A program made the translations under genes and the position numbers. A stretch of DNA of 64,000 bases from a virus (taxonomy: Duplodnaviria > Heunggongvirae > Uroviricota > Caudoviricetes), in the IMG/VR virus record IMGVR_UViG_3300043119_000732, one strand, 5' to 3'. Under the pieces are notes generated by a model. That model was not told the origin of the DNA, did not search any database, and saw only the letters and a list, made by a program, of their open reading frames with translations. Below are positions 15,622-49,699 of the stretch, piece by piece (position 1 is the stretch's first letter; each line of letters starts with the position of its first letter).

Positions 15622-16269
15622 ATGAAAGTAGTACAACCAGAAACAAAGACAACCTTATTACTTAATAAGAATTATCAAGCATTTGCATTCTGTAATGCTC
15701 GGGCTGCCTTACGTCATCTTATAACTGGTAGAGCCTCTGGTATCGATGCATCCGGTAACTTAGTTTCATGGTCTGGTGCTGATCACGATAAAAACGGTGC
15801 TATAAGAGCTACATTATCTTGGTATGGTAATAGAGTAGAACTATTTGAAGATCAACCTTGTCTTAGATCTGCACCTAATCCCGTTACCGGTGAAGATACT
15901 AATTGGGCTATACCAACTATACTGAGATGTACACACCACTTCGGTTTTCACGTAAGAAAGAACGGTAATACATCATTAAAAATGTTATACAATTTATATA
16001 AAGGTGTGTGTCAATATTGTTTAGAGCGTATACCATATCACACAGCAACAAAAGATCATGCATTTCCAAAATCAAAAGGTGGTACTAACGATGATTTTAA
16101 TCTTGTTTTAGCTTGTAAGCAATGTAATAACGAAAAGGATAATATTTTCCCCTTTTTTAATGTAAATGGTGAAGAAGTAAAACCTAGACGTATTGCACCT
16201 CAGGCAATTTTAGTACAAAATACACCTATCTTAAGAGAAGAGTGGCGACCTTATTTATATCTTGAATAA
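15622..16269 (+). CDS. HNH homing endonuclease
   Basis: Contains CQYCLERIPYH...KDHAFPKSKGGTNDDFNLVLACKQCNNEKDN, an HNH motif with a zinc-binding Cys pair. Confidence 0.7.
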   Translation: MKVVQPETKTTLLLNKNYQAFAFCNARAALRHLITGRASGIDASGNLVSWSGADHDKNGAIRATLSWYGNRVELFEDQPCLRSAPNPVTGEDTNWAIPTILRCTHHFGFHVRKNGNTSLKMLYNLYKGVCQYCLERIPYHTATKDHAFPKSKGGTNDDFNLVLACKQCNNEKDNIFPFFNVNGEEVKPRRIAPQAILVQNTPILREEWRPYLYLE

Positions 16270-18921: not shown

Positions 18922-19015
18922 AGGAGTAAGGTAGCTGCTGGGTCGTGCTGCACTTGACTGTAAATCAAGTCCCTCTGGGTAAACATCGCAGGTTCAATTC
19001 CTGCTACTCCTACCA
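18922..19015 (+). tRNA. tRNA-Tyr (GTA), type II
   Basis: Acceptor aggagta/tactcct. Anticodon arm cttga-ctGTAaa-tcaag. Long variable arm. T-arm gcagg-ttcaatt-cctgc. CCA is encoded. Confidence 0.75.
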
Positions 19016-19021
19016 TTTTTC

Positions 19022-19107
19022 GCCGCTGTGACAATAATACAAATTGGTACAGTTACTACGTTGAGAACGTAGAGTTTTTGCAGATTCGAATTCTGCCAGC
19101 GGCACCA
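19022..19107 (+). tRNA. atypical tRNA, apparent anticodon GAG (Leu-like), expanded D region
   Basis: Perfect 7-bp acceptor gccgctg/cagcggc. Anticodon arm ctacg-ttGAGaa-cgtag. T-arm gcaga-ttcgaat-tctgc and CCA. The D region is 24-25 nt and no long variable arm is found. Confidence 0.45.
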
Positions 19108-19197
19108 TTTTTTTGGGAGCGACTACACCGCTTTTAGCTGAATATGCGACGAATATTGTCGATAAAACTCTCAAAAATTCATTTCTTGCCTTTTTGT

Positions 19198-19274
19198 TCC
19201 CTCATAACTTTAATTGGTAGAGTACCCGCCTTGTAAGCGGGAAGTTGTCAGTTCGAACCTGACTGGGGGATCCA
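19198..19274 (+). tRNA. tRNA-Thr (TGT)
   Basis: Acceptor tccctca/tggggga. Anticodon arm cccgc-ctTGTaa-gcggg. T-loop ttcgaac. CCA encoded. Confidence 0.75.
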
Positions 19275-19320
19275 CTTATTACTATCTCTTGAAAGCTCCA
19301 TTTTATGAATAAATAATTAA

Positions 19321-20124
19321 ATGTATAAATTCAACCAAGAAGAATTCGATAACGCGACAAATAAAGATTCAGTTACTTGCTGGTGTAAAGATTGTGGAAC
19401 AGAAACCAAAAGACTTAAAATTTATATTAAGCATAATATAAAACATAACGTAGATAAATTTGATTGTCCTTCTTGTAAAGAAAAAGAAAAGCAAAAAATA
19501 ATAGAAGAAAATACAAAAGTATGCCTGACATGTAACATTTCCTTTTTTAGTTACGAAAATAAATTTTGCTCTAATAGTTGTGCTGCTACAACAATCAACA
19601 AGACAAGAGTTTGTAACAAAGTTCATAAAAATACAGAAAATTTTATTAGCAATAATCGCTTCCTTAAAAGAGGTCCTGCATTAAGATATAAAGAATACAA
19701 AAAGTGTTTAAATTGTGAACGAGACTTCTTACCGGTAGCAAAAACGTCAATATTTTGTGAACAAATATGCTCTTCTGAACACAGAAAAAACCAGCGTGAA
19801 AAAGAATTAGAACCACTATTAATCGAAGGAAAGGTTATTTCTCAAAATATTGAAACAAATAACACAATATATAGAAGATACTTAATTCGCAAATTTGGAC
19901 CAAGGTGTATGAAATGTGGTTGGTCCGAAGTAAATCCTTTTTCAGGTAAAGTACCGATCGAGTTAGAACATAAAGATGGTAATTGCATTAATAACATTCC
20001 AGATAATTTAGAGTTGTTGTGTCCAAACTGCCATTCACTATCTCAATTTTATAAAGGTGCTAATAAACGAGAAGGTGGATCTCCAAGATATAAACAATGG
20101 AAAAAATACTTCTCTATCAAATAA
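19321..20124 (+). CDS. HNH homing endonuclease with N-terminal Cys-rich zinc-finger region, inserted in the tRNA cluster
   Basis: Multiple CxxC pairs are present. The C-terminal EHKDGNCINN...LCPNCH is an HNH motif. Confidence 0.6.
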   Translation: MYKFNQEEFDNATNKDSVTCWCKDCGTETKRLKIYIKHNIKHNVDKFDCPSCKEKEKQKIIEENTKVCLTCNISFFSYENKFCSNSCAATTINKTRVCNKVHKNTENFISNNRFLKRGPALRYKEYKKCLNCERDFLPVAKTSIFCEQICSSEHRKNQREKELEPLLIEGKVISQNIETNNTIYRRYLIRKFGPRCMKCGWSEVNPFSGKVPIELEHKDGNCINNIPDNLELLCPNCHSLSQFYKGANKREGGSPRYKQWKKYFSIK

Positions 20125-20190
20125 TTTTTAAGTCCAGACAGCAACCATTAAAATACTACAATAAGGTAAATAAATGGACTTAGTTTTTAC

Positions 20191-20266
20191 GATGGTATAG
20201 TGTAAAGGTTTGCACAGAACACTGTCACTGTTCAAGTCGGGGTTCAATTTCCCCGTACCATCGCCA
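20191..20266 (+). tRNA. tRNA-Asp (GTC)
   Basis: Acceptor gatggta/taccatc. Anticodon arm gaaca-ctGTCac-tgttc. T-arm cgggg-ttcaatt-tcccc. CCA encoded. Confidence 0.8.
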
Positions 20267-20273
20267 TTTTTAT

Positions 20274-20347
20274 CCTTCACAGGTGTTATAGTAGCATTTC
20301 CCGTTTGGGGCGGAAAGGACTCGGAGCGTAACCGAGGTGGAGGACCA
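20274..20347 (+). tRNA. tRNA-like gene with non-canonical T-loop (AGCGTAA); anticodon unresolved, possibly TTG
   Basis: 7-bp acceptor ccttcac/gtggagg with one G-U pair. T-arm ctcgg-agcgtaa-ccgag. The 3' end is CCA. Confidence 0.35.
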
Positions 20348-20354
20348 TTTTATT

Positions 20355-20440
20355 ACGGTGTTGGTTAAGCTGGAATTTGGCAGACAGTATGCATTTAGAC
20401 TGCATGAGCCTTGAAGGTTCAACTCCTTCACACCGTACCA
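20355..20440 (+). tRNA. atypical tRNA, apparent anticodon TAG (Leu-like), expanded D region
   Basis: Perfect acceptor acggtgt/acaccgt. Anticodon arm atgca-ttTAGac-tgcat. T-arm gaagg-ttcaact-ccttc and CCA. The D region is about 25 nt and contains ggaatttggcagac, similar to Leu D-arms. Confidence 0.45.
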
Positions 20441-20447
20441 ATTTTAT

Positions 20448-20521
20448 TGAGATGTCGTATAAAAGTATTACCTCGGACTTTGACCCCGAAGAAGTTGGAG
20501 CGTTACCAGCCATCTCAGCCA
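20448..20521 (+). tRNA. tRNA-like gene, apparent anticodon TTG (Gln?), non-canonical T-loop (AGCGTTA)
   Basis: Acceptor tgagatg/catctca. Anticodon loop ctTTGac. T-arm gttgg-agcgtta-ccagc. CCA encoded. Confidence 0.4.
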
Positions 20522-20527
20522 TTTTAT

Positions 20528-20621
20528 AGTCAGGTAATGTAATTGGAAGCATCGACGGCCTTATAAACCGTGAGCACTAGATTGGTGCCGAGCGAGGGTT
20601 CAATTCCCTCCCTGACTACCA
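20528..20621 (+). tRNA. type II tRNA (long variable arm), isotype unresolved (loop ccttataaa)
   Basis: Acceptor agtcagg/cctgact. D-arm atg-taattggaag-cat. Two internal hairpins. Canonical T-arm gaggg-ttcaatt-ccctc. CCA encoded. Confidence 0.5.
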
Positions 20622-20622
20622 T

Positions 20623-20698
20623 GGTAGAGAGGCCGAACGGTTTAGGCAAGAGTTTCATAAGCTCTTATTTGTGAGTTCAAGTCTCACCTCTACCACCA
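20623..20698 (+). tRNA. tRNA-Met (CAT)
   Basis: Acceptor ggtagag/ctctacc. Anticodon arm aagagt-ttCATaa-gctctt. T-arm gtgag-ttcaagt-ctcac. CCA encoded. Confidence 0.7.
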
Positions 20699-20766
20699 TA
20701 TTTAATAATGTAACGGTAAGAACGCTTACAAGTCAATATTTCAGATTAGTTACATCGCCAATTTAT

Positions 20767-20838
20767 TGCAGTGAGGCAGGTTGCCCAAGGAGTCTCATAA
20801 GCTACCTTCTCTGGTTTCGAGTACCAGCGCTGCACCCA
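20767..20838 (+). tRNA. short atypical tRNA with CAT anticodon loop (Met/Ile2-like)
   Basis: Perfect acceptor tgcagtg/cgctgca. Anticodon loop ctCATaa. T-arm ctggt-ttcgagt-accag. CCA encoded. The D region is shortened. Confidence 0.4.
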
Positions 20839-20975
20839 ATTTAAGTTCATCCAGCAATACTAAATGTCATTGAATACAACAAAAAGCTGAACTTAGTAAT
20901 AAAAGTCCGCACAGCAATCAAAAGCAATTGAATATTAATCAATACAAGCTAAAAACGGACTTTGAAATTTTTTAT

Positions 20976-21052
20976 GCCGATGTCGTCTAATTGGTTAGGA
21001 CACCTCCCTTTCACGGAGAAGCTTGGCGGTTCGATCCCGCTCATCGGTACCA
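20976..21052 (+). tRNA. tRNA-Glu (TTC)
   Basis: Acceptor gccgatg/catcggt. Anticodon arm ctcc-ctTTCac-ggag. T-arm ggcgg-ttcgatc-ccgct. CCA encoded. Confidence 0.65.
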
Positions 21053-21058
21053 TTTTAT

Positions 21059-21134
21059 GTCTCGTTGGTCGAGTGGTTACAGGCTTTTCTCTGCAAAAGA
21101 AATTACATAGGTTCAATTCCTATACGAGACTCCA
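21059..21134 (+). tRNA. tRNA-Cys (GCA)
   Basis: Acceptor gtctcgt/acgagac. Anticodon arm tttct-ctGCAaa-agaaa. T-arm atagg-ttcaatt-cctat. CCA encoded. Confidence 0.7.
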
Positions 21135-21143
21135 TTTTTTTAC

Positions 21144-21222
21144 GCCCTAGTAGCCCAATTGGTAGTATGGCCAGAGTCTTAAACACTCTTCAGTGTGAGT
21201 TCGAATCTCACCTAGGGTACCA
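21144..21222 (+). tRNA. class-I tRNA with TAA anticodon (Leu-decoding anticodon on a short-variable-arm scaffold)
   Basis: Acceptor gccctag/ctagggt. Anticodon arm agagt-ctTAAac-actct. Variable loop only 5 nt. T-arm gtgag-ttcgaat-ctcac. CCA encoded. Confidence 0.5.
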
Positions 21223-21261
21223 CTTTAAGTATATACAGCAAAAATAAAACGCAATCATCAT

Positions 21262-21302
21262 ATACAGATGCTAGTGTGGGTTCAATTCCCACCTCTCCAC
21301 CC
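21262..21302 (+). pseudogene. tRNA 3'-half fragment (T-arm plus acceptor 3' strand plus CCA) with no matching 5' half
   Basis: gtggg-ttcaatt-cccac is followed by ctctcca-c-cca. The complementary tggagag lies 12 nt downstream, not upstream. Confidence 0.4.
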
Positions 21303-21371
21303 AATTTATACTTTATTGGAGAGTAGTGTAACGGTAGCACAGTAAACGCAAAAAATATACTTAGTTTTTTA

Positions 21372-21458
21372 CGCGTCGGTTCCCTTAGCGGCGAAAGGTC
21401 GAGCCTTTTAAGCTCACGGTTTAAACCCATCGAGGGTTCGAGTCCCTCCCGACGCACC
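21372..21458 (+). tRNA. type II tRNA with apparent TTT anticodon loop (cttttaa); identity uncertain
   Basis: Acceptor gcgtcgg/ccgacgc. Anticodon stem gagc/gctc with loop ctTTTaa. Variable arm contains ggtttaaacc. T-arm gaggg-ttcgagt-ccctc. CCA encoded. Confidence 0.45.
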
Positions 21459-21463
21459 ATTTT

Positions 21464-21538
21464 TGCTCCTATAGTCTAATGGATAGGCACCGGTCTTCTA
21501 AGCCGTATTATGTAGGTTCGAGCCCTACTGGGAGCGCC
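21464..21538 (+). tRNA. tRNA-Arg (TCT)
   Basis: Acceptor gctccta/tgggagc. Anticodon loop ctTCTaa. T-arm gtagg-ttcgagc-cctac. CCA encoded. Confidence 0.6.
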
Positions 21539-21696
21539 ATTTTTGTTCATGTACCAAGCGTACAGTGAGCTTTCGGGTCTGTTATGCAGACCCAGTCTCT
21601 TTATCTAAAGATGCGGGTTCAAGGTCCGCTCCTCTCTTACCCAATAGAACAAGGAGGATAGTTCAACATGGTAGAACATTAGATATAAATTTTTAT

Positions 21697-21771
21697 TGCC
21701 TGCTCGTATTCTGGCGAGTACCCCTGACTGTTAATCAGGTGAGCGTGGATCGTAACCACGGCGGGCAGCCA
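21697..21771 (+). tRNA. tRNA-Asn (GTT) with non-canonical T-loop (ATCGTAA)
   Basis: Acceptor tgcctgc/gcgggca. Anticodon arm cctga-ctGTTaa-tcagg. T-arm cgtgg-atcgtaa-ccacg. CCA encoded. Confidence 0.6.
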
Positions 21772-21778
21772 TTTTTAT

Positions 21779-21871
21779 GGAGAGTTGGCCGAGTACGGTT
21801 TATGGCATCTATCTTGAAAATAGAAGGGTCCTCAAAAGCCCCGACGGGTTCAAATCCCTCACTCTCCTCCA
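21779..21871 (+). tRNA. tRNA-Ser (TGA), type II
   Basis: Acceptor ggagagt/actctcc. Anticodon arm tctat-ctTGAaa-ataga. Long variable arm. T-arm acggg-ttcaaat-ccctc. CCA encoded. Confidence 0.75.
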
Positions 21872-21931
21872 CTTTAACATACGTACTATACCTCTTGTTA
21901 TCAATGTGAATAATGGGTACGTGTAATTTAT

Positions 21932-22007
21932 GCATCGTTCGCATAGTGGTTAGTGCGCCTCTCTTCCAAAGAGGATTCCGTGAGTTCGAATCTCACACGA
22001 TGCTCCA
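21932..22007 (+). tRNA. tRNA-Gly (TCC)
   Basis: Acceptor gcatcgt/acgatgc. Anticodon arm cctct-ctTCCaa-agagg. T-arm gtgag-ttcgaat-ctcac. CCA encoded. Confidence 0.8.
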
Positions 22008-22097
22008 TTTTGCGAAAGCAACTAACCTATAATACTCAGCGCTAAGTCAGGTATAAGGAAATTATAGGAAAGCAAAGACCTAATGTTGCTACCTTTA

Positions 22098-22178
22098 TGC
22101 ATCAGTGCCCGGAGTTCGTTTAACGGTCCTCGCTCTTAACGAGATTTACATGGGTTAAAATCCCATCTGATGCACCAA
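22098..22178 (+). tRNA. tRNA-Lys (CTT)-like with non-canonical T-loop (TTAAAAT)
   Basis: Acceptor tgcatca/tgatgca. Anticodon arm ctcg-ctCTTaa-cgag. T-arm atggg-ttaaaat-cccat. CCA encoded. The D-loop is enlarged. Confidence 0.5.
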
Positions 22179-22183
22179 TTTAC

Positions 22184-22261
22184 AGGAGATGGGACTGCAG
22201 GGTTGGTCACCGCTTTTACATAGCGATTAACAGAAGGGTTCGAGCCCCTTATCTCCTACCA
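22184..22261 (+). tRNA. tRNA-Val (TAC)
   Basis: Acceptor aggagat/atctcct. Anticodon loop ttTACat. T-arm aaggg-ttcgagc-ccctt. CCA encoded. Confidence 0.65.
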
Positions 22262-22386
22262 TTTTCTCAGGTTGTACGGTAGAAATCCGGAAAAACTAGA
22301 CCCTTTTCGATTGGGCTCTGGTAGAGGGCATCCAAACGTAATAGTAGGATTGTAAGATTGACGACCCTTACTTGGGACCAATTTAT

Positions 22387-22773
22387 GGGGGTGTACAGGA
22401 TTCGACTTAATTCGATACAGCTCTATTTGCAAGCAGAGATTGATATTATCTCTATAACTAGTATCAAAACTACAAATGGCAACATTGTAAATTACATCAA
22501 GAACTTCTTCAAGAGCGCTGCTCCTGTTGAGGCCCTTGCATTCGCTGCTTAATAAACAGCGATCGAAACTAGATTTGATTCTCACTAAAATTTAATTTCG
22601 TTATATAGTGAGATTAGAGAGTCAGTTATACATTGGGATTCTCTAGTATATAAATGTATACCACTATCTACAGGTTGTAGTATACCTTAAAATAGTTATT
22701 AAATACTACTAAGCTTGTAGATAATAGTGAGGTTTGGGTTAAACACGCGGGTTCAATTCCCGCCACCTCCACC
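22387..22773 (+). ncRNA. ssrA: tmRNA (SsrA), about 387 nt, phage-encoded
   Basis: The 5' end ggggg-tgtacaggattcgac matches the tmRNA signature GGGG…GGATTCGAC. The 3' end is a tRNA-like T-arm gcggg-ttcaatt-cccgc with acceptor cacctcc-a-CCA pairing the 5' gggggtg. Internal reading frame …KNFFKSAAPVEALAFAA then TAATAA, ending in the Ala-rich, degradation-tag-like C-terminus. Confidence 0.8.
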
Positions 22774-22778
22774 ATTTT

Positions 22779-23069
22779 ATGAATAGAAACGAAACGCTTG
22801 AACGTATTAAAGTCAAAATGAAGGAAAAAAATCCATCTATAAAAGATGTTGAATTCGTTGCAAAACGAGATCCTATAAATTTTGGAGCAATAACATATTC
22901 CGTTTTTATAAATGGAGAAAAAAGTCAGGATAGATTACTTGGTGAATTAATAGATGATTTAGAGTTTGTTGGATGTCATTATGCTCCAATAAACGAAAAA
23001 AGAATAGATGTAGTAGAAGAACTTGCTACATTATTATGTAATGTATATGATAGTTCGGAATTTAAATAA
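22779..23069 (+). CDS. hypothetical protein
   Basis: 96 aa ORF immediately after the tmRNA. Confidence 0.4.
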   Translation: MNRNETLERIKVKMKEKNPSIKDVEFVAKRDPINFGAITYSVFINGEKSQDRLLGELIDDLEFVGCHYAPINEKRIDVVEELATLLCNVYDSSEFK

Positions 23070-23261
23070 TTTTTGTTAACAAAGAAAACACATCGATTTC
23101 CAATAGTCGTGATGATCAAAGAGTGCAGTAAAAGTCTGAATATTGGAATAATTTAGGGAAAGCCGCCGTTGATCCAACGAAGAGAAGGCTTGACAGTTCG
23201 GAGAGATTGAACGACATTGCAGTGGATGAGTTGACACTGTAGATTATTAAATAACTCATAT

Positions 23262-23337
23262 TGGAGTTTGGTGAAGCAGGTGCTCACGTCTGCATGAAGA
23301 GCAGAAGATCTCGGATCGATACCGAGAGCTCCAGCCA
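23262..23337 (+). tRNA. tRNA-Phe (GAA) with non-canonical T-loop (ATCGATA)
   Basis: Acceptor tggagtt/agctcca. Anticodon arm tctgc-atGAAga-gcaga. T-arm ctcgg-atcgata-ccgag. CCA encoded. Confidence 0.6.
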
Positions 23338-23338
23338 C

Positions 23339-23412
23339 TGGCCTATAACACAATGATAGTGTGCTTGCCTGATTAGCGAGAAATGGGGGTTTAATTCCCT
23401 CTAGGCCAACCA
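23339..23412 (+). tRNA. tRNA-Ile (GAT)
   Basis: Acceptor tggccta/taggcca. Anticodon arm cttgc-ctGATta-gcgag. T-arm ggggg-tttaatt-ccctc. CCA encoded. Confidence 0.55.
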
Positions 23413-23415
23413 TTT

Positions 23416-23489
23416 ATCCAGCCATGTTCCAAGGTAGGCGATAGAGTCTCCAAAACTCAATGCGGTAAGTTCGATTCTTACGCTGGATG
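23416..23489 (+). tRNA. tRNA-Trp (CCA)
   Basis: Perfect acceptor atccagc/gctggat. Anticodon loop ctCCAaa. Canonical T-arm gtaag-ttcgatt-cttac. The 3' CCA is not encoded. Confidence 0.65.
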
Positions 23490-23515
23490 TTTTTATTTCT
23501 TAACTAAATATAATA

Positions 23516-23845
23516 GTGGGTAAACACATGATACAAAGTATGTTATCACGCGAAGGTAGCGTACTTAAAAAGTATGAAGATTATATAACACCTGATAGTA
23601 ATCTTTATATTAACCCTGATAATCCGGATTCTAATATAATCAGAAGTTTAGCTAAACGTAAAAATAAAGAAGAGACAGTTAAAAAGCATTATGCAGTTGC
23701 TGCAAAAGCAGGTAATTTATATACAAAAAATATACTTAAATTAGCTGAAGAGCAAGGAGTGAAACTAAAGGTAATACATCTTAATATATACCCTGGCGGT
23801 GCAACATCTTTCATGTATAGAATAGCTTTGCAAAAGATAGATTAA
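23516..23845 (+). CDS. hypothetical protein
   Basis: 109 aa ORF. Confidence 0.4.
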   Translation: MGKHMIQSMLSREGSVLKKYEDYITPDSNLYINPDNPDSNIIRSLAKRKNKEETVKKHYAVAAKAGNLYTKNILKLAEEQGVKLKVIHLNIYPGGATSFMYRIALQKID

Positions 23846-23856
23846 TAAATAATTAA

Positions 23857-24189
23857 ATGAATTTTGATCTTCTAATAGAAAAGACTCTATCCAACCTTGA
23901 TGCAAAGAATCAAGAATTTTTCAATGTTAGATCTAAAGGTGCAAAAAAGATAGAAGCATCTGCAAGAGCAAAAGGTGGTCCATCACTGCTTACAGCTCAA
24001 CACTTTAAAGCAAAAGAAATACCATACAAAGAATGTATTAAAAATATAGAGAATCCAAAATTTATTGAATCTAAAGCAGATCAATGCTTTTCTAAACTGA
24101 GAAGTTGGAAGAGTATGACACAGGCTGAATTTCAAAAAGTAACAGGTGAACTTGAAGCATACGGTGAGTGCCTTATTAAGCTAAAATAA
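23857..24189 (+). CDS. hypothetical protein
   Basis: 110 aa ORF. Confidence 0.4.
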   Translation: MNFDLLIEKTLSNLDAKNQEFFNVRSKGAKKIEASARAKGGPSLLTAQHFKAKEIPYKECIKNIENPKFIESKADQCFSKLRSWKSMTQAEFQKVTGELEAYGECLIKLK

Positions 24190-24192
24190 TTT

Positions 24193-24287
24193 GGAGGGTA
24201 GGTAGATATTGTTCTTGCTACATTTGTTTGCTAAACAAAACCGGACCTTAAAAGCCGGTGAGGGTTAAATTCCCTCACCCTCCGCCA
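24193..24287 (+). tRNA. tRNA-Ser (GCT), type II
   Basis: Acceptor ggagggt/accctcc. D-stem gtag/ctac. Anticodon arm tttgt-ttGCTaa-acaaa. Long variable arm accgg…ccggt. T-arm gaggg-ttaaatt-ccctc. CCA encoded. Confidence 0.65.
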
Positions 24288-24295
24288 TTTTTGTA

Positions 24296-24721
24296 TTGAT
24301 ACTGTATCTAATAAATAATAGTATGGAAGACAAGATTATAAGTGAAAAGTATCTAACTGAAATAGCGTTTACAAAAAGATACGATACAACAGATGATTAT
24401 TATATAATGTTCTGGATGGCTGATGATTACGACAACACTATACAACGTCTTTTTAGTAAAAGTTTAGAAGATACAGTAAGTATTGTCGGTTTGAATAGAC
24501 ACGATAAAAAGCAAGCAATCATTAAAAAACTAGAAGAAAAACCTCTAAACATATTTTACGCTATAGATACTTTTGAAGATAGTAGAGAGATAACGATGAT
24601 ATTAGTAGGTACAAACCCTAAGACTACAGATAAGATGAGTATAGAAATTAACGATAAATATGAAAACGATGCACCCAGTTTCTTTAAATTTCTAAGAGCA
24701 GAAGGTCTAAGAATAAAATGA
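24296..24721 (+). CDS. hypothetical protein
   Basis: 141 aa ORF. Confidence 0.4.
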   Translation: MILYLINNSMEDKIISEKYLTEIAFTKRYDTTDDYYIMFWMADDYDNTIQRLFSKSLEDTVSIVGLNRHDKKQAIIKKLEEKPLNIFYAIDTFEDSREITMILVGTNPKTTDKMSIEINDKYENDAPSFFKFLRAEGLRIK

Positions 24722-24906
24722 TCACGTTTAGTTTATTTTTTGAAGCCAATATACATAAAGCTAGACATCCTGGAAGATTTAAAGCAAAGGTAACTAAACG
24801 CTTTGGTAAAGGTAAGATAACTTGTTCTAAAGCAAGATCTTTTACTTCAAGTAGAGACACACTTACTAAGAAACAAGCAAATAGATTTATTAATTACCAC
24901 TGTTAG
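24718..24906 (+). CDS. hypothetical small basic protein
   Basis: 62 aa ORF, K/R-rich. Confidence 0.3.
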   Translation: MITFSLFFEANIHKARHPGRFKAKVTKRFGKGKITCSKARSFTSSRDTLTKKQANRFINYHC

Positions 24907-24929
24907 AAGGAACAAAAATAAAATTTGGT

Positions 24930-25277
24930 ATGGGAAAAGCTAGATACAGATGTCCTTTACTCGATAAACCAAATCAATGGCATGTTGTTCTTGATATAGA
25001 ACAACAACCTTTCAATTGGGTGTATCCAGATTATAAATGTCGACGTCTCTCTGTTACAAAAAAAGATGATGGTACGTACTTACCTTTGGTCAATGGATCT
25101 AATGATTTCCGTAACGTGCCATATGGTGAGACGTTTACAACAAGTAGCTTAGAAGAAGCTCAAAAGTTTTTATTTACATATATAGATAATATAATCGAGA
25201 GAGATAAAAGGCAAGACAAATCTCAATTAAAAGAGTATCTTAAAACGTATGTTGATAGAAAGCTTAAAGAGCAATAA
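24930..25277 (+). CDS. hypothetical protein
   Basis: 115 aa ORF. Confidence 0.4.
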   Translation: MGKARYRCPLLDKPNQWHVVLDIEQQPFNWVYPDYKCRRLSVTKKDDGTYLPLVNGSNDFRNVPYGETFTTSSLEEAQKFLFTYIDNIIERDKRQDKSQLKEYLKTYVDRKLKEQ

Positions 25278-25315
25278 TTTTTAGTAGTCTCTCTGTGCCT
25301 CTCATGCATAATATA

Positions 25316-25343
25316 ATGTAAGTAATTGCGCAATTACTTACAT
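25316..25343. promoter_or_regulatory. perfect 28-nt palindrome (14-bp stem hairpin)
   Basis: atgtaagtaattgc|gcaattacttacat sits between the last protein gene and the next tRNA block. Confidence 0.5.
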
Positions 25344-25378
25344 TATAGCATTGAAGCATAATTCAGGGAGAGTTTATT

Positions 25379-25454
25379 GGGGAGTTAGCTCATTCAGTAG
25401 AGCAATTGCTTTGCAAGCAATAGGTGACCGGAGCAAAGCCGGTATTCTCCACCA
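25379..25454 (+). tRNA. tRNA-Ala (TGC) with non-canonical T-loop (AGCAAAG)
   Basis: Acceptor ggggagt/attctcc. D-arm gctc-attcagtag-agc. Anticodon arm attgc-ttTGCaa-gcaat. T-arm accgg-agcaaag-ccggt. CCA encoded. Confidence 0.6.
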
Positions 25455-25460
25455 CTTTAT

Positions 25461-25536
25461 GTCTCGTTAGTTCAATGGATCAGAACCTTCGGCTACGGAC
25501 CGAACGATGGAAGTTCGACTCTTCCACGGGACACCA
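25461..25536 (+). tRNA. tRNA-Arg (ACG)
   Basis: Acceptor gtctcgt/acgggac. Anticodon arm ttcgg-ctACGga-ccgaa. T-arm ggaag-ttcgact-cttcc. CCA encoded. Confidence 0.75.
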
Positions 25537-25568
25537 CTTTCTCGAAGACTAATTATCTTCGAGTATGT

Positions 25569-25644
25569 TCGATCGTGACGCCGTTTAGTAAGGCAGAGAA
25601 GCTGGCAAAGTGTCTGCCCGCGGGTGCGAATCCCGTCGGTCGAA
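25569..25644 (+). tRNA. tRNA-like gene, isotype unresolved (oversized anticodon-region loop)
   Basis: Acceptor tcgatcg/cggtcga. T-arm gcggg-tgcgaat-cccgt. The central stem gcaga/tctgc encloses a 15-nt loop. No encoded CCA. Confidence 0.3.
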
Positions 25645-25764
25645 CTACAAATTTGAGAATAGAACAATGGTAGGTGAAACCAAGATGTATATCTTTAGAT
25701 TTAAGTCTGTTCTTTCTTTTCAGAAAGTCTAATCACCGATACTACTGAAAAGTTCTCAATTTAT

Positions 25765-25843
25765 GGGGACATCGTCTAAAAACGTAAAGGACATACCTCT
25801 CTCACAGGTAAAATGCCGGCTCGCATTCCGGTTGCCCCCACCA
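25765..25843 (+). tRNA. tRNA-like, apparent anticodon CTC (Glu-like), non-canonical T-loop
   Basis: Acceptor ggggaca/tgccccc with one mismatch. Anticodon arm tacct-ctCTCac-aggta. T-arm ccgg-ctcgcat-tccgg. CCA encoded. Confidence 0.4.
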
Positions 25844-25918
25844 CTTTCTTTCGGCCATCTGGCACCAAGGCATGCTGCCGTTGAGTTCGGCGGATGGAAT
25901 TGCAATCCGAAAGAATAT

Positions 25919-25994
25919 GCACCAGTGACCGGAAAGGCTACGGCTCAGATTGCAACCCTGATTCATGTCGGTTCAAATCCGACCTGGTGCTCCA
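25919..25994 (+). tRNA. tRNA with GCA anticodon (second Cys-like copy)
   Basis: Acceptor gcaccag/ctggtgc. Anticodon arm tcag-ttGCAac-ctga. T-arm gtcgg-ttcaaat-ccgac. CCA encoded. Confidence 0.55.
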
Positions 25995-26297
25995 CTTTCG
26001 GACCAGAATTGAAGCTGGTGGTGTAAACCTTGGAACAACTGAATGACTTCAATTTCAGCCGTATAGGGGAAGAAACTTACCGAAAGCTTTTATCAGGAGA
26101 TGATGTAGTGATTAGCATACTAGGCTGTGAACCTGGGTGGCAGAGTTTGATTCTCTGGCTCCTGACCAATTTGACGGTAATGGCTGAGTTCGACTCAACA
26201 AGGCAAGTCCAGCAGTTCGCCTTCTGTAACCGTAACCTCCAAGCCTTATGGCTTCGGATATGGCCTTCGTTCCGTTCGCCCGATAAGTAACGGATAT

Positions 26298-26374
26298 GCT
26301 CAGGTAGCCCAACGGTAGAGGCGTCGGTCTTAGAAGCCGAATAGTGATGGGTTCAAATCCCTCCCTGAGCACCA
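26298..26374 (+). tRNA. class-I tRNA with TAG anticodon (Leu-decoding anticodon, short variable arm)
   Basis: Acceptor gctcagg/cctgagc. Anticodon arm tcggt-ctTAGaa-gccga. 5-nt variable loop. T-arm atggg-ttcaaat-ccctc. CCA encoded. Confidence 0.55.
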
Positions 26375-35343: not shown

Positions 35344-36918
35344 ATGCTACAATTCAATAAAGTAAATGCTACCCCTGCTAAACTCGATCAATGGGTTCAA
35401 CTTGGTGTAAATGTTCTTCTTATTGGCGAGAAGGGTGTTGGCAAGACACAGCGCGTTATAGATGCATTTAAACGCAATAATCTTAAGTTTGCTTATTTTT
35501 CTGGTTCTACTCTTGATCCTTGGATTCATTTGATTGGTATCCCAAAAGTAAGAGGTGCAGAAGGTCAAGAGAAGATGGATTTTATTCTACCTTCTAACCT
35601 TGATGAAGATATTGAAGCATTATTTATTGACGAATATAATAGAACTCATAAACTTGTAAAGAACGCTCTTCTTGAGCTTCAACAGTTTAAGTCAATTAAC
35701 GGTCGTAAGTTTCCTAAGCTTAAGATGGTTTGGGCTGCTATTAATCCACCTAAGTCTGATAGCGATGCTAACTCACAAGACTATGATGTAGAGCAACTTG
35801 ATCCTGCACAACTCGACCGTTTTCATGTTATTGTTGAGCTTCCAAATGCTCCTGATAAGAAATACTTTGTAGATAAGTATGGTGATCATCATGGTAATAT
35901 TCTTATTAACTGGTGGAAAGATCAATCAGATGATGCTAAGAAGATTCTAAGTCCTCGTAGATTAGATTATATTGGAGAGTTTTTCAATAAAGGAGGAGAT
36001 GTATATGATCTTCTACCGGTATCAGCTAATACAAAAGATCTTGTAACTAAACTTGCTACCAAGAAAGAAGACGCATTGTTACATAGTGTATTTGCTAATC
36101 CTACAGAAGATGTAATGAAGCTATTCTTACTCGGTGATCAGAACTATCTCAAGTATAAGGATAAGTTGAATGAGCCTCGTTTCTGGAAATTCCATAAATA
36201 CCTCAAGCAAGAGTATATCTGTGCTAATATAAAGAATAGTGGTATTTATAAGAACTATGCTATATTACAGGGGTTAAAGAAGGATGTAACCTTTACTGCT
36301 GCAATTACAGCGGTATCAAATTCAACTATGAATAATGATTTATTAAAGGTTCTTAAGCTACTAGAAGCGCAAAATCTCGATATTAGTAAGTTTGAGATTA
36401 CAACTCAATCTACCAACAACCTACTTACATCTTTACCACCTTCAGTCACAACAAACGATTTATTCTCAGTTAATCCTGCTATATTAGTAGCAGGCAAAAC
36501 TAAGAAGATAGATTTTACTGTATATAGAAGTCTAGGTACTAACGTTTATATAAGTCTAATGGAGGACTTAGTTAAGTCTTGGAGTAATGTACCCAATCAT
36601 TATGATGTAATTAACTTTACATGTACTATGGTTGGATCGTTTCAAACCACCACATTTACTAAATATAAATCTAAACTACTACCTCTAATTGGTACATGCT
36701 GTATGTTAGCTAAACAAAAGCTAAATACAGATGAGCAAAAGCAAATAAGATCCCAGATACATATTAATAAGGCTAAGATTGGAGATACACACTATAACGA
36801 ATTTATAAACTATTTACGGGGTGATTCAGATGAAACGAGTGTTATTATATCTGAAGACTTTGAAAAGAAAGTAAACGAGGCTAGTATGCTTGTTGCTCTA
36901 TCTTCTAATATAAAATGA
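35344..36918 (+). CDS. AAA+ ATPase, MoxR/CbbQ/CobS-like (AAA_5 family)
   Basis: Walker A LLIGEKGVGKTQ. Walker B ALFIDE. 524 aa. Followed directly by VWA-domain proteins. Confidence 0.6.
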   Translation: MLQFNKVNATPAKLDQWVQLGVNVLLIGEKGVGKTQRVIDAFKRNNLKFAYFSGSTLDPWIHLIGIPKVRGAEGQEKMDFILPSNLDEDIEALFIDEYNRTHKLVKNALLELQQFKSINGRKFPKLKMVWAAINPPKSDSDANSQDYDVEQLDPAQLDRFHVIVELPNAPDKKYFVDKYGDHHGNILINWWKDQSDDAKKILSPRRLDYIGEFFNKGGDVYDLLPVSANTKDLVTKLATKKEDALLHSVFANPTEDVMKLFLLGDQNYLKYKDKLNEPRFWKFHKYLKQEYICANIKNSGIYKNYAILQGLKKDVTFTAAITAVSNSTMNNDLLKVLKLLEAQNLDISKFEITTQSTNNLLTSLPPSVTTNDLFSVNPAILVAGKTKKIDFTVYRSLGTNVYISLMEDLVKSWSNVPNHYDVINFTCTMVGSFQTTTFTKYKSKLLPLIGTCCMLAKQKLNTDEQKQIRSQIHINKAKIGDTHYNEFINYLRGDSDETSVIISEDFEKKVNEASMLVALSSNIK

Positions 36919-38168
36919 ACTATCAAGAACGGTTAGAAATATCTCAAAAGCTCCAAAGTTATCACTATTTCTTTAGAGCTTTTTGGGATATAGGTAACCC
37001 CATAGTAGGTAAGTTTGATGATTTACCTACTGCTGCGATTACCTTTGATGATCAAGGCAATCATCTTAACTTGATGATAAATGAAGATTTTTGGAATTCT
37101 CTAAACGAAGAAACTAAACTCTTTTTAGTTTGTCATGAGATTTTACACATTCTATTAGAGCATGGTTATAGATTCTCTGAGTATATAGGTACACAAGAAT
37201 TTAGTAATATGAATATAGCTGCCGATGTAGTTATTAACGAGACTTTAGTAAGTTCATTTAGTTTTAAGAGAATTGAACTGAATAATGATCTAAGTGAAAA
37301 AGGTTGCTGGATGGATACGGTATTCAAAAATGATAAAAATTGCTTACCTAATCAATCTACAGAATACTATTTTAATAGACTACCTAAAGATAAAGAGAAC
37401 AAATACTTTGCTATAGACTCTCATAAAGTATTAACTCCCGAACAGCAACAACAGATGAAAGATTTGATAGATGCTTCTGGTATTCTTGATAAACTAGATG
37501 AATCATTTACCAATAAACTACCATCAACTGTTGATACGCAAAAATTAAAGAACTCTGCTGCAGGTAAAGGCACAGGTTCATGGCTTACTGTAAATTCGTT
37601 AAGAAAAAAGAAGTACAAGTGGGAGACTGTTATTAAGAAATGGGAAAGTCAGTTTAATAAAGATACTATCAATACGTTAGAACGATGGGAGAGAGTAACT
37701 CCTAAATACTCTCAATTACTATCTAGTGATATATCACTACCTACTGAGAATTGGATCTTAGATGATTTTAAAGACAATCATAAGATTGATGTATGGTTCT
37801 TTTTAGATACATCTGGTTCTTGTATTGGGTTAAAAGATCGCTTCTTTACTGCTGCACGTAGTTTAAATCCTAATAGGTTTAATGTTCGTTTATTTTGCTT
37901 TGATACCTCTGTTGTAGAGATTGATATCAAACAGAATAAAGTGTACGGCGGTGGAGGTACTTCTTTTAGTATTATAGAATCTAAGATACAAAATACTATT
38001 AAATCTGAAAAGATTAAATACCCTAAAGCTGTATTTTTAATCACTGATGGTTATGGTGATACAGTTAAACCAGAGAAGCCAGAACGTTGGTACTGGTTTT
38101 TATCTGATAATTATAGACATTATATACCAAAAGAGTCTAAAATATTTAAGTTATCTGACTACGAATAA
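36915..38168 (+). CDS. putative metallopeptidase (HExxH) plus VWA (MIDAS) domain protein, MoxR-partner type
   Basis: LVCHEILHILLEH is an HExxH…E motif. The C-terminal FFLDTSGSC is a DxSGS MIDAS motif. Overlaps the upstream ATPase by 4 nt. Confidence 0.6.
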   Translation: MNYQERLEISQKLQSYHYFFRAFWDIGNPIVGKFDDLPTAAITFDDQGNHLNLMINEDFWNSLNEETKLFLVCHEILHILLEHGYRFSEYIGTQEFSNMNIAADVVINETLVSSFSFKRIELNNDLSEKGCWMDTVFKNDKNCLPNQSTEYYFNRLPKDKENKYFAIDSHKVLTPEQQQQMKDLIDASGILDKLDESFTNKLPSTVDTQKLKNSAAGKGTGSWLTVNSLRKKKYKWETVIKKWESQFNKDTINTLERWERVTPKYSQLLSSDISLPTENWILDDFKDNHKIDVWFFLDTSGSCIGLKDRFFTAARSLNPNRFNVRLFCFDTSVVEIDIKQNKVYGGGGTSFSIIESKIQNTIKSEKIKYPKAVFLITDGYGDTVKPEKPERWYWFLSDNYRHYIPKESKIFKLSDYE

Positions 38169-38170
38169 TT

Positions 38171-38380
38171 ATGAATCAAAAACAACAAAGTAAAGAATTA
38201 ACATCGCTTAAAGAGAATTATAGAGCTCATCTGAATTCTCTTATAGAAATTGAAGATAAAGCATGTAAACTACTCAATATTGATCCTAATAACAGTAATG
38301 AATATGATAGTGATTGGGTATTAGATTATCTTAATGGTCATTGCTCACAATCCGTTCTTAGAAAGAAAATTAAACAATGA
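38171..38380 (+). CDS. hypothetical small protein
   Basis: 69 aa ORF. Confidence 0.35.
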   Translation: MNQKQQSKELTSLKENYRAHLNSLIEIEDKACKLLNIDPNNSNEYDSDWVLDYLNGHCSQSVLRKKIKQ

Positions 38381-38616
38381 ATATTGAATTTCTAACACAC
38401 GCACCACCTATTCCAGATTGGTTCGAACGACTTGTATGGTATGAAAATGTTGTGGAAGATATGCCTGGTAAGCCAGGTTGGAAACATCAAGTTACAAAGA
38501 AGATGTTCGAGCCACAGATGGACTATTTAGTCCGCTGGAGATTTGCATATTCTAAAGCTATGCAAGATGAATACAGTAAACGTATTAACGAAAATTTCTT
38601 CAACAAAAGCACTTGA
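38377..38616 (+). CDS. hypothetical protein
   Basis: 79 aa ORF. Confidence 0.4.
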   Translation: MNIEFLTHAPPIPDWFERLVWYENVVEDMPGKPGWKHQVTKKMFEPQMDYLVRWRFAYSKAMQDEYSKRINENFFNKST

Positions 38617-38682
38617 TTAATAAGGAACATATATAAAATAAAACTGAAGTATCGACAGCAAACAAAAAATATACTTAGAATT

Positions 38683-40212
38683 ATGGCAACTAAAAAAACA
38701 ATCAAAAAGACAGCTCCTAAGCAAAACGCACTTATCAGTGCTTTAACTACAGGAGATATCAAGACGCATAATGGTGCGGTAAGTCATTCGACTACTGGTA
38801 CTTCTTTGCTCGATTTTTTTGGTAAAGGTGGTTCAATGCGTTCACAACCAGATGATGCATCTATTACACTTTTCCGCTCCGCTTATAATGAGGATAAGAC
38901 TATCGCTCTTAAGATTCTCTTCTATCTAGTAGATGTACGTGAAGGTCAAGGTGAGCGTAAGCTCTTCCGTAACTGCTTTAAGTGGCTTGCGCAAAACGAT
39001 GAGAAAGTAGCTAAGAACCTCTTGATCCAGATCCCTGAGTTTACTCGTTGGGACAACGTACTTGAGACGCTTGAAGGTACATCTCTTGAAAAAATCGCAC
39101 TTAAATTTGTTGCTGATAAACTTATTGAAGATGCATCTGAAAAGAATCCTTCACTATGTGCTAAATGGGCACCAAGTGAACAGGCTTCATCTTCTGTAAC
39201 CAAACGTCTTGCAAAGAAAGTACGTACTACTTTAGATTACTCTCCAAAGCAATATCGTAAGCTTCTATCAGCTCTTCGTAAAAAGATCGATGTAGTGGAA
39301 CGCAAAATGTGTGTAGGTGAATGGGACAAGATCAATTATCCTGCGGTACCTTCAAAGGCTGCAAGCACTTACCGTAAAGCATTCAAAGAACATGACGGTG
39401 ACCGTTACTCAAAGTTTTTAACTAATGTCGAGAAAGGTGAAGAAAAGATTAACGCTTCAGTATTGTACCCATATGATATTGTACGTTCAGTTCGTAATAT
39501 ACGGTCCGTAGATCGTACTCTAGAGGCCCAATGGAAGGCCTTACCAGATTATCTTGCCGGTAATAAGCATAATGGTATTGTTGTAGCTGACGTTTCAGCT
39601 TCAATGGACTCTTGTAACTATTATAATGCTAATATTGGTAATAACATAGCACCTATTGATGTTGCTGTATCAATTGCAATTTATTTTGCTGAACGAAACG
39701 AAGGTGCATTCAAAGATCATTTTATGATCTTCTCCCATAATGCTAAACTTTTAAAGATTACAGGTACAAGTCTAATACAAAATGTAACTGATGTTCTTGG
39801 TAGACGTGAGGTTGCTAATACTAATCTACAATCTGTATTTGATCTTATACTTGATAAAGGCGTAAGTAATAAAGTGCCGCAATCTGAAATGCCATCCCAT
39901 GTATATATTATCTCAGATATGCAATTTGATTGTGCTACCGGGCCAGACTCTCTTAATAGCGGTGAAGTAACTAATCATGCTGCTATTAAGGCAAAGTACG
40001 CTGCAGCTGGTTACAACGTGCCTCAAATTGTATATTGGAATGTTAACTCTTATAGTGATGTACCGGTTAAATATGACGATAAAGGTACTTGCTTAGTATC
40101 AGGCTGTTCACCTTCAATCTTGAAGAGTGTTTTGTCTAACAAATCAACAACACCTTATAACATGATGATCGATACAGTTTGTAGTGACCGTTATGAAGTA
40201 ATCAAAGCTTAA
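38683..40212 (+). CDS. TROVE-domain / VWA protein, Ro60 (Rsr)-like
   Basis: 509 aa. The N-terminal LLDFFGKGGSMRS resembles the Ro60 FG-x-GG-T/S motif. Central VVADVSASMDS is a DxSxS MIDAS motif. The architecture matches Ro60 (about 530 aa torus plus vWA). Confidence 0.5.
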   Translation: MATKKTIKKTAPKQNALISALTTGDIKTHNGAVSHSTTGTSLLDFFGKGGSMRSQPDDASITLFRSAYNEDKTIALKILFYLVDVREGQGERKLFRNCFKWLAQNDEKVAKNLLIQIPEFTRWDNVLETLEGTSLEKIALKFVADKLIEDASEKNPSLCAKWAPSEQASSSVTKRLAKKVRTTLDYSPKQYRKLLSALRKKIDVVERKMCVGEWDKINYPAVPSKAASTYRKAFKEHDGDRYSKFLTNVEKGEEKINASVLYPYDIVRSVRNIRSVDRTLEAQWKALPDYLAGNKHNGIVVADVSASMDSCNYYNANIGNNIAPIDVAVSIAIYFAERNEGAFKDHFMIFSHNAKLLKITGTSLIQNVTDVLGRREVANTNLQSVFDLILDKGVSNKVPQSEMPSHVYIISDMQFDCATGPDSLNSGEVTNHAAIKAKYAAAGYNVPQIVYWNVNSYSDVPVKYDDKGTCLVSGCSPSILKSVLSNKSTTPYNMMIDTVCSDRYEVIKA

Positions 40213-48832: not shown

Positions 48833-49699
48833 ATGAACTTTCGAACATATAAAGGAACACATGAACTTGTGATTAAGCAAGCTACCTTCCCAGGTGGTGA
48901 GGTTCTTATACAAACTCAACCAAACTTTGGGTTTTTTAATACGCAAGATACAATTCGTATTGAAGCGCGTATTCGTAATAGCGATGACTTATTTGCCCTT
49001 GCTCTCATTAAGGATGCTATCGAGAATGAACAGATAACTTATGGTGATAAATCGAGTATTGAGCTTATTATACCTTATGTACCATATGCCCGACAAGATC
49101 GTACATGCTGTAAAGGTGAACCACATAGCCTAAAGGTATTTGCTAAATTTATTAATAATTTGAATTTTGATCGTGTAATCGTATGTGATCCTCATAGCGA
49201 TGTTACTGGTGCATTAATCGATCGAGTTAAAATTATCGACCAGGTACAAATAATTAATGATTTTACAGCGTTTTGTAAACGTGTATTACAGGGTGTACTA
49301 TTTGTAAGTCCAGATGCAGGTGCAAATAAAAAGACTGCAAATGTTGCTAAGTATTTTGACCATATTCGATTTATTCGTGCTGATAAACTTCGTGACCTTG
49401 CAACAGGTAAAATTATTGAAACCTCTATATTTGCGGATGATCTTAATGGTGCTGATATAGTAATTGCAGATGATATTTGCGATGGTGGTCGCACCTTTAT
49501 CGAACTCGCTAAATCTCTTAAGAAAAAGAATGCAGGTAATGTGATTCTATACGTTACTCATGGTATTTTTAGTCAAGGTGTTGATACTCTATTTGCAAAT
49601 GGTATAGATGAGATTTATACAACTAATAGCTACAGTACCGATTTAAATATCGAAGAGAAGAATAAAAATAAGTTATATATCCATAATCTTACATTTTAA
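48833..49699 (+). CDS. prs: ribose-phosphate pyrophosphokinase (PRPP synthetase) family protein; Prs or the phage Adps-type homolog
   Basis: IPYVPYARQDR matches the Prs motif PYFGYARQDR. IVIADDICDGGRTF is the PRPP-binding loop (DDxxDTGGT-like). Confidence 0.75.
   Translation: MNFRTYKGTHELVIKQATFPGGEVLIQTQPNFGFFNTQDTIRIEARIRNSDDLFALALIKDAIENEQITYGDKSSIELIIPYVPYARQDRTCCKGEPHSLKVFAKFINNLNFDRVIVCDPHSDVTGALIDRVKIIDQVQIINDFTAFCKRVLQGVLFVSPDAGANKKTANVAKYFDHIRFIRADKLRDLATGKIIETSIFADDLNGADIVIADDICDGGRTFIELAKSLKKKNAGNVILYVTHGIFSQGVDTLFANGIDEIYTTNSYSTDLNIEEKNKNKLYIHNLTF

Follow-up and report, generated by a model that had tools for sequence, protein, structure and literature searches.

Short-arm tRNA-Leu and long-arm tRNA-Lys(UUU) genes in the tRNA cluster of a tailed phage

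What role can be assigned to phage transfer RNAs (tRNAs) whose anticodons and scaffolds disagree? We addressed this question in the IMG/VR virus record IMGVR_UViG_3300043119_000732, a stretch of 64,000 nucleotides (nt) referred to here as the window, whose tRNA gene cluster includes two leucine tRNAs, Leu(UAA) and Leu(UAG), with 5-nt variable loops, and a lysine tRNA, Lys(UUU), on a long-arm scaffold (Table 1). A preliminary description had proposed that such mismatches mark decoy or competitor tRNAs aimed at anticodon nucleases, altered aminoacylation or a mis-assigned anticodon loop. tRNAs were called with ARAGORN and with the Rfam tRNA model (gathering score 29 bits). The results showed that ARAGORN, Rfam and the preliminary description give identical anticodons throughout, and both programs concurred on the short loops of the two tRNA-Leu and on the long arm of Lys(UUU), which lies one base off the 21372-21458 first given. 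These three tRNAs and the two Cys(GCA) tRNAs of the cluster have 7-nt anticodon loops with T33 and an encoded CCA, and their discriminators are A73 in the Leu and Lys tRNAs and U73 in both Cys tRNAs. Since the calls are concordant and the loops are standard 7-nt loops with U33, mis-assignment of the anticodon is excluded, while Rfam scores above the gathering score rule out a chance match. The mismatches between scaffold and anticodon thus persist under model-based calling. We consider it probable that these are the phage's own working, cognately charged tRNAs, carried in the large cluster of a T4-like phage of low guanine-plus-cytosine (GC) content.

Short-arm tRNA-Leu genes and their family

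Canonical type II tRNA-Leu have a variable arm of more than 10 nt with a stem, and both window tRNA-Leu depart from this with their 5-nt loops. Leu(UAA) has G1-U72, A73, a D stem of 3 base pairs (bp), the D loop CAAUUGGUAGUAU (A14, A15, G18G19, A20a) and U48 as the final base of its variable loop; Leu(UAG) has A73 and the D loop CAACGGUAGA, and its T stem (gaTggg/ccctc) reaches full pairing only with one U bulged. A Felix O1-like homologue of Leu(UAG) also has a mismatch in its T stem. The anticodon loops, cttaaac in Leu(UAA) and cttagaa in Leu(UAG), are canonical. In Escherichia coli, Leu identity consists of A73, A15-U48, G18G19 and A20a and does not require the long arm (PMC9976931). All bacterial Leu identity positions, namely A73, A14, A15/U48, G18G19, A20a and the T-loop bases U54 U55 C56 ... 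A58, were found in both window tRNA-Leu, including the A73 that the preliminary description had singled out for checking. Bacterial leucyl-tRNA synthetase (LeuRS) reads A73, A14, A15-U48, G18G19, A20a and the D/T-loop elbow. All of these are kept, and the reading does not involve the long arm, so that leucylation is most likely.

The distribution of this shape was assessed with a DNA pattern that combines a Leu-type D loop, an NAR anticodon, a variable loop of the form ..AGU and a T loop. The pattern matched in at least 120 viral contigs, where all 131 tRNAs under the matches listed were called Leu, about 114 of them with A73, and in at least 120 bacterial contigs, which among the matches listed were nearly all Actinomycetota, mostly with single chromosomal genes. 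Homologues labelled tRNA-Leu occur in cultured phages, including Felix O1-like coliphages (wV8), Vibrio PVA8/V07, Bacillus Deep Blue, and Sinorhizobium and Streptomyces phages. In samples unselected for Leu, short-arm genes made up 10 of 16 distinct tRNA-Leu (first sample) and 48 of 115 (second sample), and they account for about 40% of Leu genes in related phage clusters. Within the second sample, A73 was present in 43 of the 48 short-arm genes, U was the final variable-loop base in 44, and a Leu-type D arm was found in 38, compared to 63 of the 67 long-arm tRNA-Leu. An alignment of 30 short-arm members revealed a cloverleaf that is 97% paired, with both sides changed at 18 of 20 pairs and a covariation score of 0.909, compared to 0.24 for shuffles and at most 0.17 with slid partners.

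At loci holding both Leu shapes, the two had an anticodon in common at only 1 of 39, against a null expectation of 16.8 ± 2.9; a value of 1 or lower was reached in 0 of 2000 shuffles. These results indicate that short-arm and long-arm tRNA-Leu together form one Leu decoding set, as ordinary isoacceptors. Both the complementary anticodons and the presence of the gene on actinobacterial chromosomes speak against a decoy or back-up role, leaving the decoy or competitor idea unsupported for the Leu tRNAs. Bacterial tRNA-Leu are not all type II, contrary to the premise of the preliminary description: Streptomyces coelicolor leucylates a type I tRNALeu(CAA), and the shape is common in Actinomycetota and in phage clusters. 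We found no comment on arm-less phage tRNA-Leu among open-access papers. The Leu case is ordinary and adds a member to the type I tRNA-Leu family, a kind already known and common that has received little discussion.

Long variable arms on tRNA-Lys(UUU), tRNA-Ile(UAU) and tRNA-Thr(UGU)

Bacterial tRNA-Lys is expected to have a class I shape with a variable loop of 4-5 nt. The variable region of Lys(UUU) instead reads c-ggt-ttaa-acc-catc, that is, 1 nt, a 3-bp stem (ggt/acc), the loop ttaa and a 3' tail CAUC. The tRNA further has A73, G1-C72, a 3-nt connector between acceptor and D stems, a C27-A43 mismatch and the anticodon loop cttttaa. Lys identity consists of the anticodon and A73 (PMC9976931), and the full set (U34 U35 U36 and A73) is present. 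When compared to the Leu set, Lys(UUU) has G15 (within AGCGG) and C48 in place of A15-U48 and has no Leu-type D loop. Compared to the Ser set, A73 replaces the usual G73 and the arm has only 3 bp; in the loci of this family, most phage tRNA-Ser carry G73 or U73 and have a longer arm. It shares A73, G1-C72, U35 and the presence of an arm with the Tyr set, and lacks G34 and A36. Its 7-bp acceptor and 5-bp T stems differ from the 8/4 or 9/3 arrangement of allo-tRNAs.

Long-arm Lys(UUU) genes were found in at least 14 viral contigs, many of them very large: two pattern scans gave loci L202-L204, L327 and L329-L335, and L113, L391 and L434 were added. Beyond the search pattern, the members share an extra-arm stem of 3-4 bp with a small loop, and most have the CAUC 3' tail. 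In an alignment of 10 distinct members, registered to the structure by hand in a way that favours pairing counts, 95.5% of positions were paired, and the extra-arm helix was 100% paired with compensatory changes at 4 of 4 pairs. At 12 of 15 loci, the stretch examined contains no Lys(UUU) besides the long-arm copy, and at the other 3 (L203, L204, L329) a normal copy stands alongside.

The discriminators of other long-arm tRNAs in these phages follow the isotype of the anticodon (Asn G73, His C73, Asp G73, Thr U73), which points to an arm gained within the isotype and not to an identity chimera. When only D arms are compared, Lys(UUU) lies closest to long-arm Thr(UGU) and Tyr. Val, Asn and further isotypes carry the AGCGGY D-loop motif as well, which deprives the D loop of diagnostic value. 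We also performed a nearest-neighbour isotype test on whole sequences, with the anticodon masked, the variable region removed and the tRNA's own class excluded. Long-arm Leu did not stand out as the closest class to short-arm Leu, and no single isotype was closest to Lys(UUU), in a test whose controls performed well for Ser, Arg and Thr and failed for Tyr and Asn. A blastn search of the Lys(UUU) gene against INPHARED gave no match, and no description of a long-arm phage Lys(UUU) was found in the open-access literature. Long-arm Lys(UUU) is a conserved viral variant that has been little described.

A second long arm is carried by the tRNA-Ile(UAU) of the window. Its family comprises 96 distinct members in at least 116 viral contigs, with a covarying extra-arm stem and, in 60 of the 96, the 7-nt arm loop CAGAUUA; long-arm Ile(UAU) occurs at L001 5376-5468, L002 3499-3591, L159, L164, L171, L186, L332 and L336-L451. 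The family scan required AGAU, and all 8 members obtained by unrelated criteria also have AGAU. CAGAUUA is similar to the anticodon loop (GAU) of the major tRNA-Ile. Long-arm Ile(UAU) likewise had no blastn match in INPHARED and no description that we found in the open-access literature; given these INPHARED searches, neither Lys(UUU) nor Ile(UAU) has a cultured relative carrying it. tRNA-Thr(UGU) with variable regions of 11-15 nt, often an unpaired A/C-rich stretch (AUACAAACAAC), was observed at L016 11453-11537, L017/L018, L032 11264-11346, L034 5771-5854, L146, L330 and L332, with U73 in 6 of 7; the Thr(UGU) of the window itself is normal. Long-arm Thr(UGU) and Ile(UAU) co-occur with short-arm Leu in contigs L330, L332, L032 and L034.

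Codon use and competing explanations

Window open reading frames (ORFs) have a GC content of 0.24 at third codon positions. TTA and CTA make up 35% and 19% of Leu codons, ATA makes up 41% of Ile codons, and AAA accounts for 60% of the codons for Lys and for 4.1% of codons overall. In a test that drew mostly on one protein, alignment to homologues placed AAA opposite K at 58% (AAG at 64%), UUA opposite L at 74% and CUA opposite L at 88%, and placed AUA, much as it did AUU, opposite I at 54%, with L at 10%. Window genes are written in the standard code. Within the cluster, the short-arm tRNA-Leu and the long-arm Lys(UUU) are the only tRNAs for UUR, CUN and AAA. Given the standard code and the heavy use of AAA, UUA and CUA, mischarged tRNAs would damage the phage's own proteins. 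Altered aminoacylation, as raised in the preliminary description, is thus unlikely.

We favour working, cognately charged tRNAs as the reading of these genes. They would supply the A/U-ending codons that the phage uses most. The two short-arm tRNA-Leu would belong to the type I family shared by phages and Actinomycetota and would most likely be leucylated by the host LeuRS, and Lys(UUU) would most likely be lysylated by lysyl-tRNA synthetase (LysRS), which would recognise the UUU anticodon and A73 and tolerate the extra hairpin. The analysis establishes the structures and families of these tRNAs, their covariation and identity positions, the complementary anticodon sets and the use and meaning of the codons; the actual charging by host LeuRS and LysRS and the cause of arm loss or gain are inferred. 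Several points weigh against this reading. The type I tRNALeu(CAA) of S. coelicolor is not a substrate for E. coli LeuRS (PMC6614811), so that acceptance of short-arm Leu may depend on the LeuRS of the host. The Tyr-like arm of Lys(UUU), together with A73 and U35, may allow some tyrosylation. The covarying stem and conserved CAUC tail demonstrate selection on the Lys arm, which a merely tolerated insertion leaves unexplained. Added to these are the hand registration of the Lys alignment and the dependence of the codon-meaning test on mostly one protein.

More tentatively, large phage clusters might carry a recurrent arm-swapped set (short Leu; long Lys(UUU), Thr(UGU) and Ile(UAU)) in which the variable region serves as a functional handle. 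Such a handle, a proposal to be held just as loosely, could help synthetases accept a poorly recognised anticodon, as in Ile(UAU), or could make the tRNAs invisible to immune nucleases that read tRNA shape.

The most serious rival explanation, which we consider rather unlikely and which would add to cognate charging and not replace it, is counter-defence: altered variable regions would hide normally decoding tRNAs from tRNA-cleaving host nucleases, or from a phage nuclease that clears host tRNAs. PrrC and PARIS are among the systems that target tRNA-Lys. The bacterial Schlafen RorSlfn5 acts mainly on tRNA-Lys(UUU), and human SLFN11 is reported as specific for cleavage of type II tRNAs (PMC13056530). 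The normal Lys(UUU) retained beside the long-arm copy at L203, L204 and L329, the selection on the extra arm, the co-occurrence of short-arm Leu with long-arm Lys(UUU), Thr(UGU) and Ile(UAU) in contigs L330, L332, L034 and L032 and in the window, and window genes for nicotinamide adenine dinucleotide (NAD) salvage, of a kind used against host defence, are all consistent with this view. However, the anticodon stem-loops, which known anticodon nucleases mostly read, are canonical, the two Leu shapes fill complementary anticodons and are not back-ups, and short-arm Leu is a normal chromosomal gene in many Actinomycetota.

An identity switch or deliberate mistranslation is very unlikely. Here Lys(UUU) would be charged by tyrosyl-tRNA synthetase, seryl-tRNA synthetase or LeuRS, or short-arm Leu by another synthetase, leaving AAA, UUA and CUA recoded or ambiguous. 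The Lys extra arm does resemble that of tRNA-Tyr, whose identity also includes A73 and U35 (PMC9976931), and charging with Leu or Ser has been described for long-arm tRNAs whose anticodons specify neither (PMC3333845, PMC5389517). However, AAA, UUA and CUA rank with the phage's most frequent codons and have K and L opposite them in homologues, Lys(UUU) departs from the Leu set (G15/C48), fits Ser poorly (A73, 3-bp arm) and is without the Tyr anticodon (G34, A36), and the discriminators of the other long-arm tRNAs in these phages match the isotype that the anticodon specifies. The least probable explanation is that these are decayed, non-functional genes whose odd shapes are mutational debris: degenerate tRNA-like pieces do occur in phage clusters, here at 20355-20440 and 25569-25645, and the bulged T stem of Leu(UAG) and the C27-A43 mismatch and 3-nt connector of Lys(UUU) would fit decay, but each shape is found again in many contigs, with compensatory changes in every helix, identity positions and the encoded CCA are intact, and no other tRNA of the cluster serves UUR, CUN and AAA.

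Cluster context and closest known systems

The cluster contains 24 tRNAs called by ARAGORN, 3 extra tRNAs called by Rfam and 1 transfer-messenger RNA (tmRNA) (Table 1).

Table 1. Coordinates of the tRNA cluster and of the RNA features discussed
Feature	Coordinates	Strand	Called by	Remarks
Phage tRNA gene cluster	18922..26374	+	ARAGORN + Rfam	All members on + strand; encoded CCA in most
tRNA-like element, weak	20355-20440		ARAGORN, relaxed	86 nt; good acceptor stem, T arm, A73-CCA; aberrant middle; no Rfam hit
tRNA-Gln(UUG)	20448-20521	+	Rfam	Absent from default ARAGORN calls
tRNA-Ile(UAU), long variable arm	20528..20621	+	ARAGORN	5-bp stem, loop AGAUU; outside the range of the preliminary description
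tRNA-Cys(GCA) copy 1	21059..21134	+	ARAGORN	42% GC; U73
tRNA-Leu(UAA)	21144..21222	+	ARAGORN, Rfam 54.1 bits	79 nt; variable loop tcagt; class I shape
tRNA-Lys(UUU)	21373..21459	+	ARAGORN, Rfam 34.0 bits	87 nt; 15-nt variable region
tRNA-Lys(CUU)	22099-22177	+	Rfam 45.8 bits	ARAGORN at relaxed threshold only; short variable loop; D loop without GG
tmRNA, complete, inside tRNA cluster	22387-22774	+	Rfam RF00023, 133.9 bits	Uncalled by default ARAGORN
tRNA-like element, weak	25569-25645			Good acceptor stem, T arm, A73-CCA; aberrant middle; no Rfam hit
tRNA-Glu(CUC)	25765-25843	+	Rfam	Missed by default ARAGORN; 8-nt T loop; acceptor-stem mismatches
tRNA-Cys(GCA) copy 2	25919..25994	+	ARAGORN, Rfam 40.7 bits	55% GC; U73
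tRNA-Leu(UAG)	26298..26374	+	ARAGORN, Rfam 54.8 bits	77 nt; variable loop atagt; class I shape

Lys(CUU) is the sole Lys tRNA of the cluster besides Lys(UUU). The second Cys(GCA) tRNA, described as unexpected in the preliminary description, is ordinary: a duplicated anticodon was found in 52 of 85 tRNA-rich loci. The two Cys copies share 44 of 78 aligned positions, with U73 and CCA in both. tmRNAs are also present in the related loci L012, L014 and L027. The last tRNA block (25379-26374; Ala, Arg-ACG, Glu-CUC, Cys copy 2, His and Leu-UAG) is GC-richer than the first, its members are separated by structured spacers, and it may have a separate origin. Three HNH endonuclease genes (15622-16269, 19321-20124 and 36915-38168), one of them within the cluster, are consistent with mobile-element traffic in tRNA clusters.

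Of the weak tRNA-like elements, the one at 20355-20440 contains a perfect hairpin (atgca-tttagac-tgcat) that presents UAG and was considered as a hidden type II tRNA-Leu. It was left out of the tRNA count because it has no Rfam hit, an over-long D region and no homologue in any related locus examined. The spacers 21223-21372 and 21540-21696 fold as circularly permuted tRNA mimics with the layout of YrlA, a bacterial Y RNA, in the order T arm, loop-closed acceptor-like helix and D-like hairpin, with a long terminal stem enclosing all; the Rfam YrlA model gave spacer 21540-21696 only 28.8 bits against a threshold of 69. A gene trio at 35344-40212 encodes an ATPase (phrog_1297), a DUF2201 metallopeptidase-like protein and a protein with DUF2828 and DUF7788. 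DUF2828 is possibly related to the Y-RNA-binding Ro60/TROVE proteins, which would fit YrlA-like RNAs; a PDB sequence search with the DUF2828 protein of the window gave no hit.

A baseplate wedge protein, tail fibre proteins and a virion protein are encoded around the cluster, giving a tailed-phage context, and the virion protein is about 62% identical to its counterparts in T4-like cyanophages. The window has a GC content of about 33%. A megablast search of the whole region against INPHARED phages gave zero matches, i.e., no cultured phage matched at the DNA level, and no synthetase, RNA ligase or CCA enzyme was found among the window ORFs scanned. A phosphoribosyl-pyrophosphate-synthetase-like protein and a nicotinamide phosphoribosyltransferase, at 48833-49699 and 51835-53421, form an NAD salvage pair of the type that phages deploy against NAD-depleting defences.

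The textbook rule that bacterial Leu, Ser and Tyr tRNAs are long-armed and all others short fails for phage clusters, in which some 40% of Leu genes are armless and Lys(UUU), Ile(UAU) and Thr(UGU) families are armed. This bears on automated tRNA annotation and isotype checks, and on which host LeuRS can serve a phage, as one type I tRNA-Leu, at the least, is not accepted by E. coli LeuRS. It is also relevant to the search for phage tRNAs that counter tRNA-cleaving defences, for which tRNA-Lys(UUU) is a favoured target, and the families defined here offer concrete substrates for charging and cleavage assays.

The closest known counterpart of the short-arm tRNA-Leu is the S. coelicolor type I tRNALeu(CAA), which has the variable loop ACAGC and is leucylated by its own LeuRS (PMC6614811). 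Like the window genes (TCAGT and ATAGT; the family most often has ACAGT), it combines a Leu anticodon with a 5-nt variable loop, stands beside type II tRNA-Leu isoacceptors and belongs to a sequence family found in many Actinomycetota. It differs in being chromosomal, bacterial and CAA, whereas the window genes are phage-borne and read UAA and UAG; moreover, A73 is not an identity element in S. coelicolor, whose LeuRS is specially adapted (PMC6614811). Homologous short-arm tRNA-Leu, 76-81% identical to the window copies, occur in Escherichia phage wV8 (EU877232; Leu-TAG of 77 nt, Leu-CAA of 78 nt), Vibrio PVA8/V07 and Bacillus Deep Blue, where they are annotated merely as "tRNA-Leu". Animal mitochondrial tRNA-Leu is also type I, having a variable loop that is short and A73 and A14 as identity elements (PMC9976931), but it is organellar, often weak in structure and served by a dedicated mitochondrial LeuRS.

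The arm of Lys(UUU) is most like that of bacterial tRNA-Tyr, which is likewise built from 1 nt, a stem of 3-4 bp, a small loop and a 3' tail of 3-4 nt with a final C; the two further share A73, G1-C72 and U35. In the long-arm Lys loci, the arms of phage tRNA-Tyr end in CAUC, CUAC or CUUC. The anticodons differ (GUA versus UUU), and whole-sequence similarity, in the test whose Tyr control failed, does not group Lys(UUU) with Tyr. Nematode nev-tRNAs (PMC3333845) and allo-tRNAs (PMC5389517) also combine long arms with non-Leu/Ser/Tyr anticodons, and nev-tRNAs include UAU. However, these tRNAs carry Leu or Ser and mistranslate, and allo-tRNAs have 8/4 or 9/3 acceptor/T stems, whereas the long-arm tRNAs of the window have 7/5 stems, are without the Leu/Ser identity positions and decode codons on which the phage depends.

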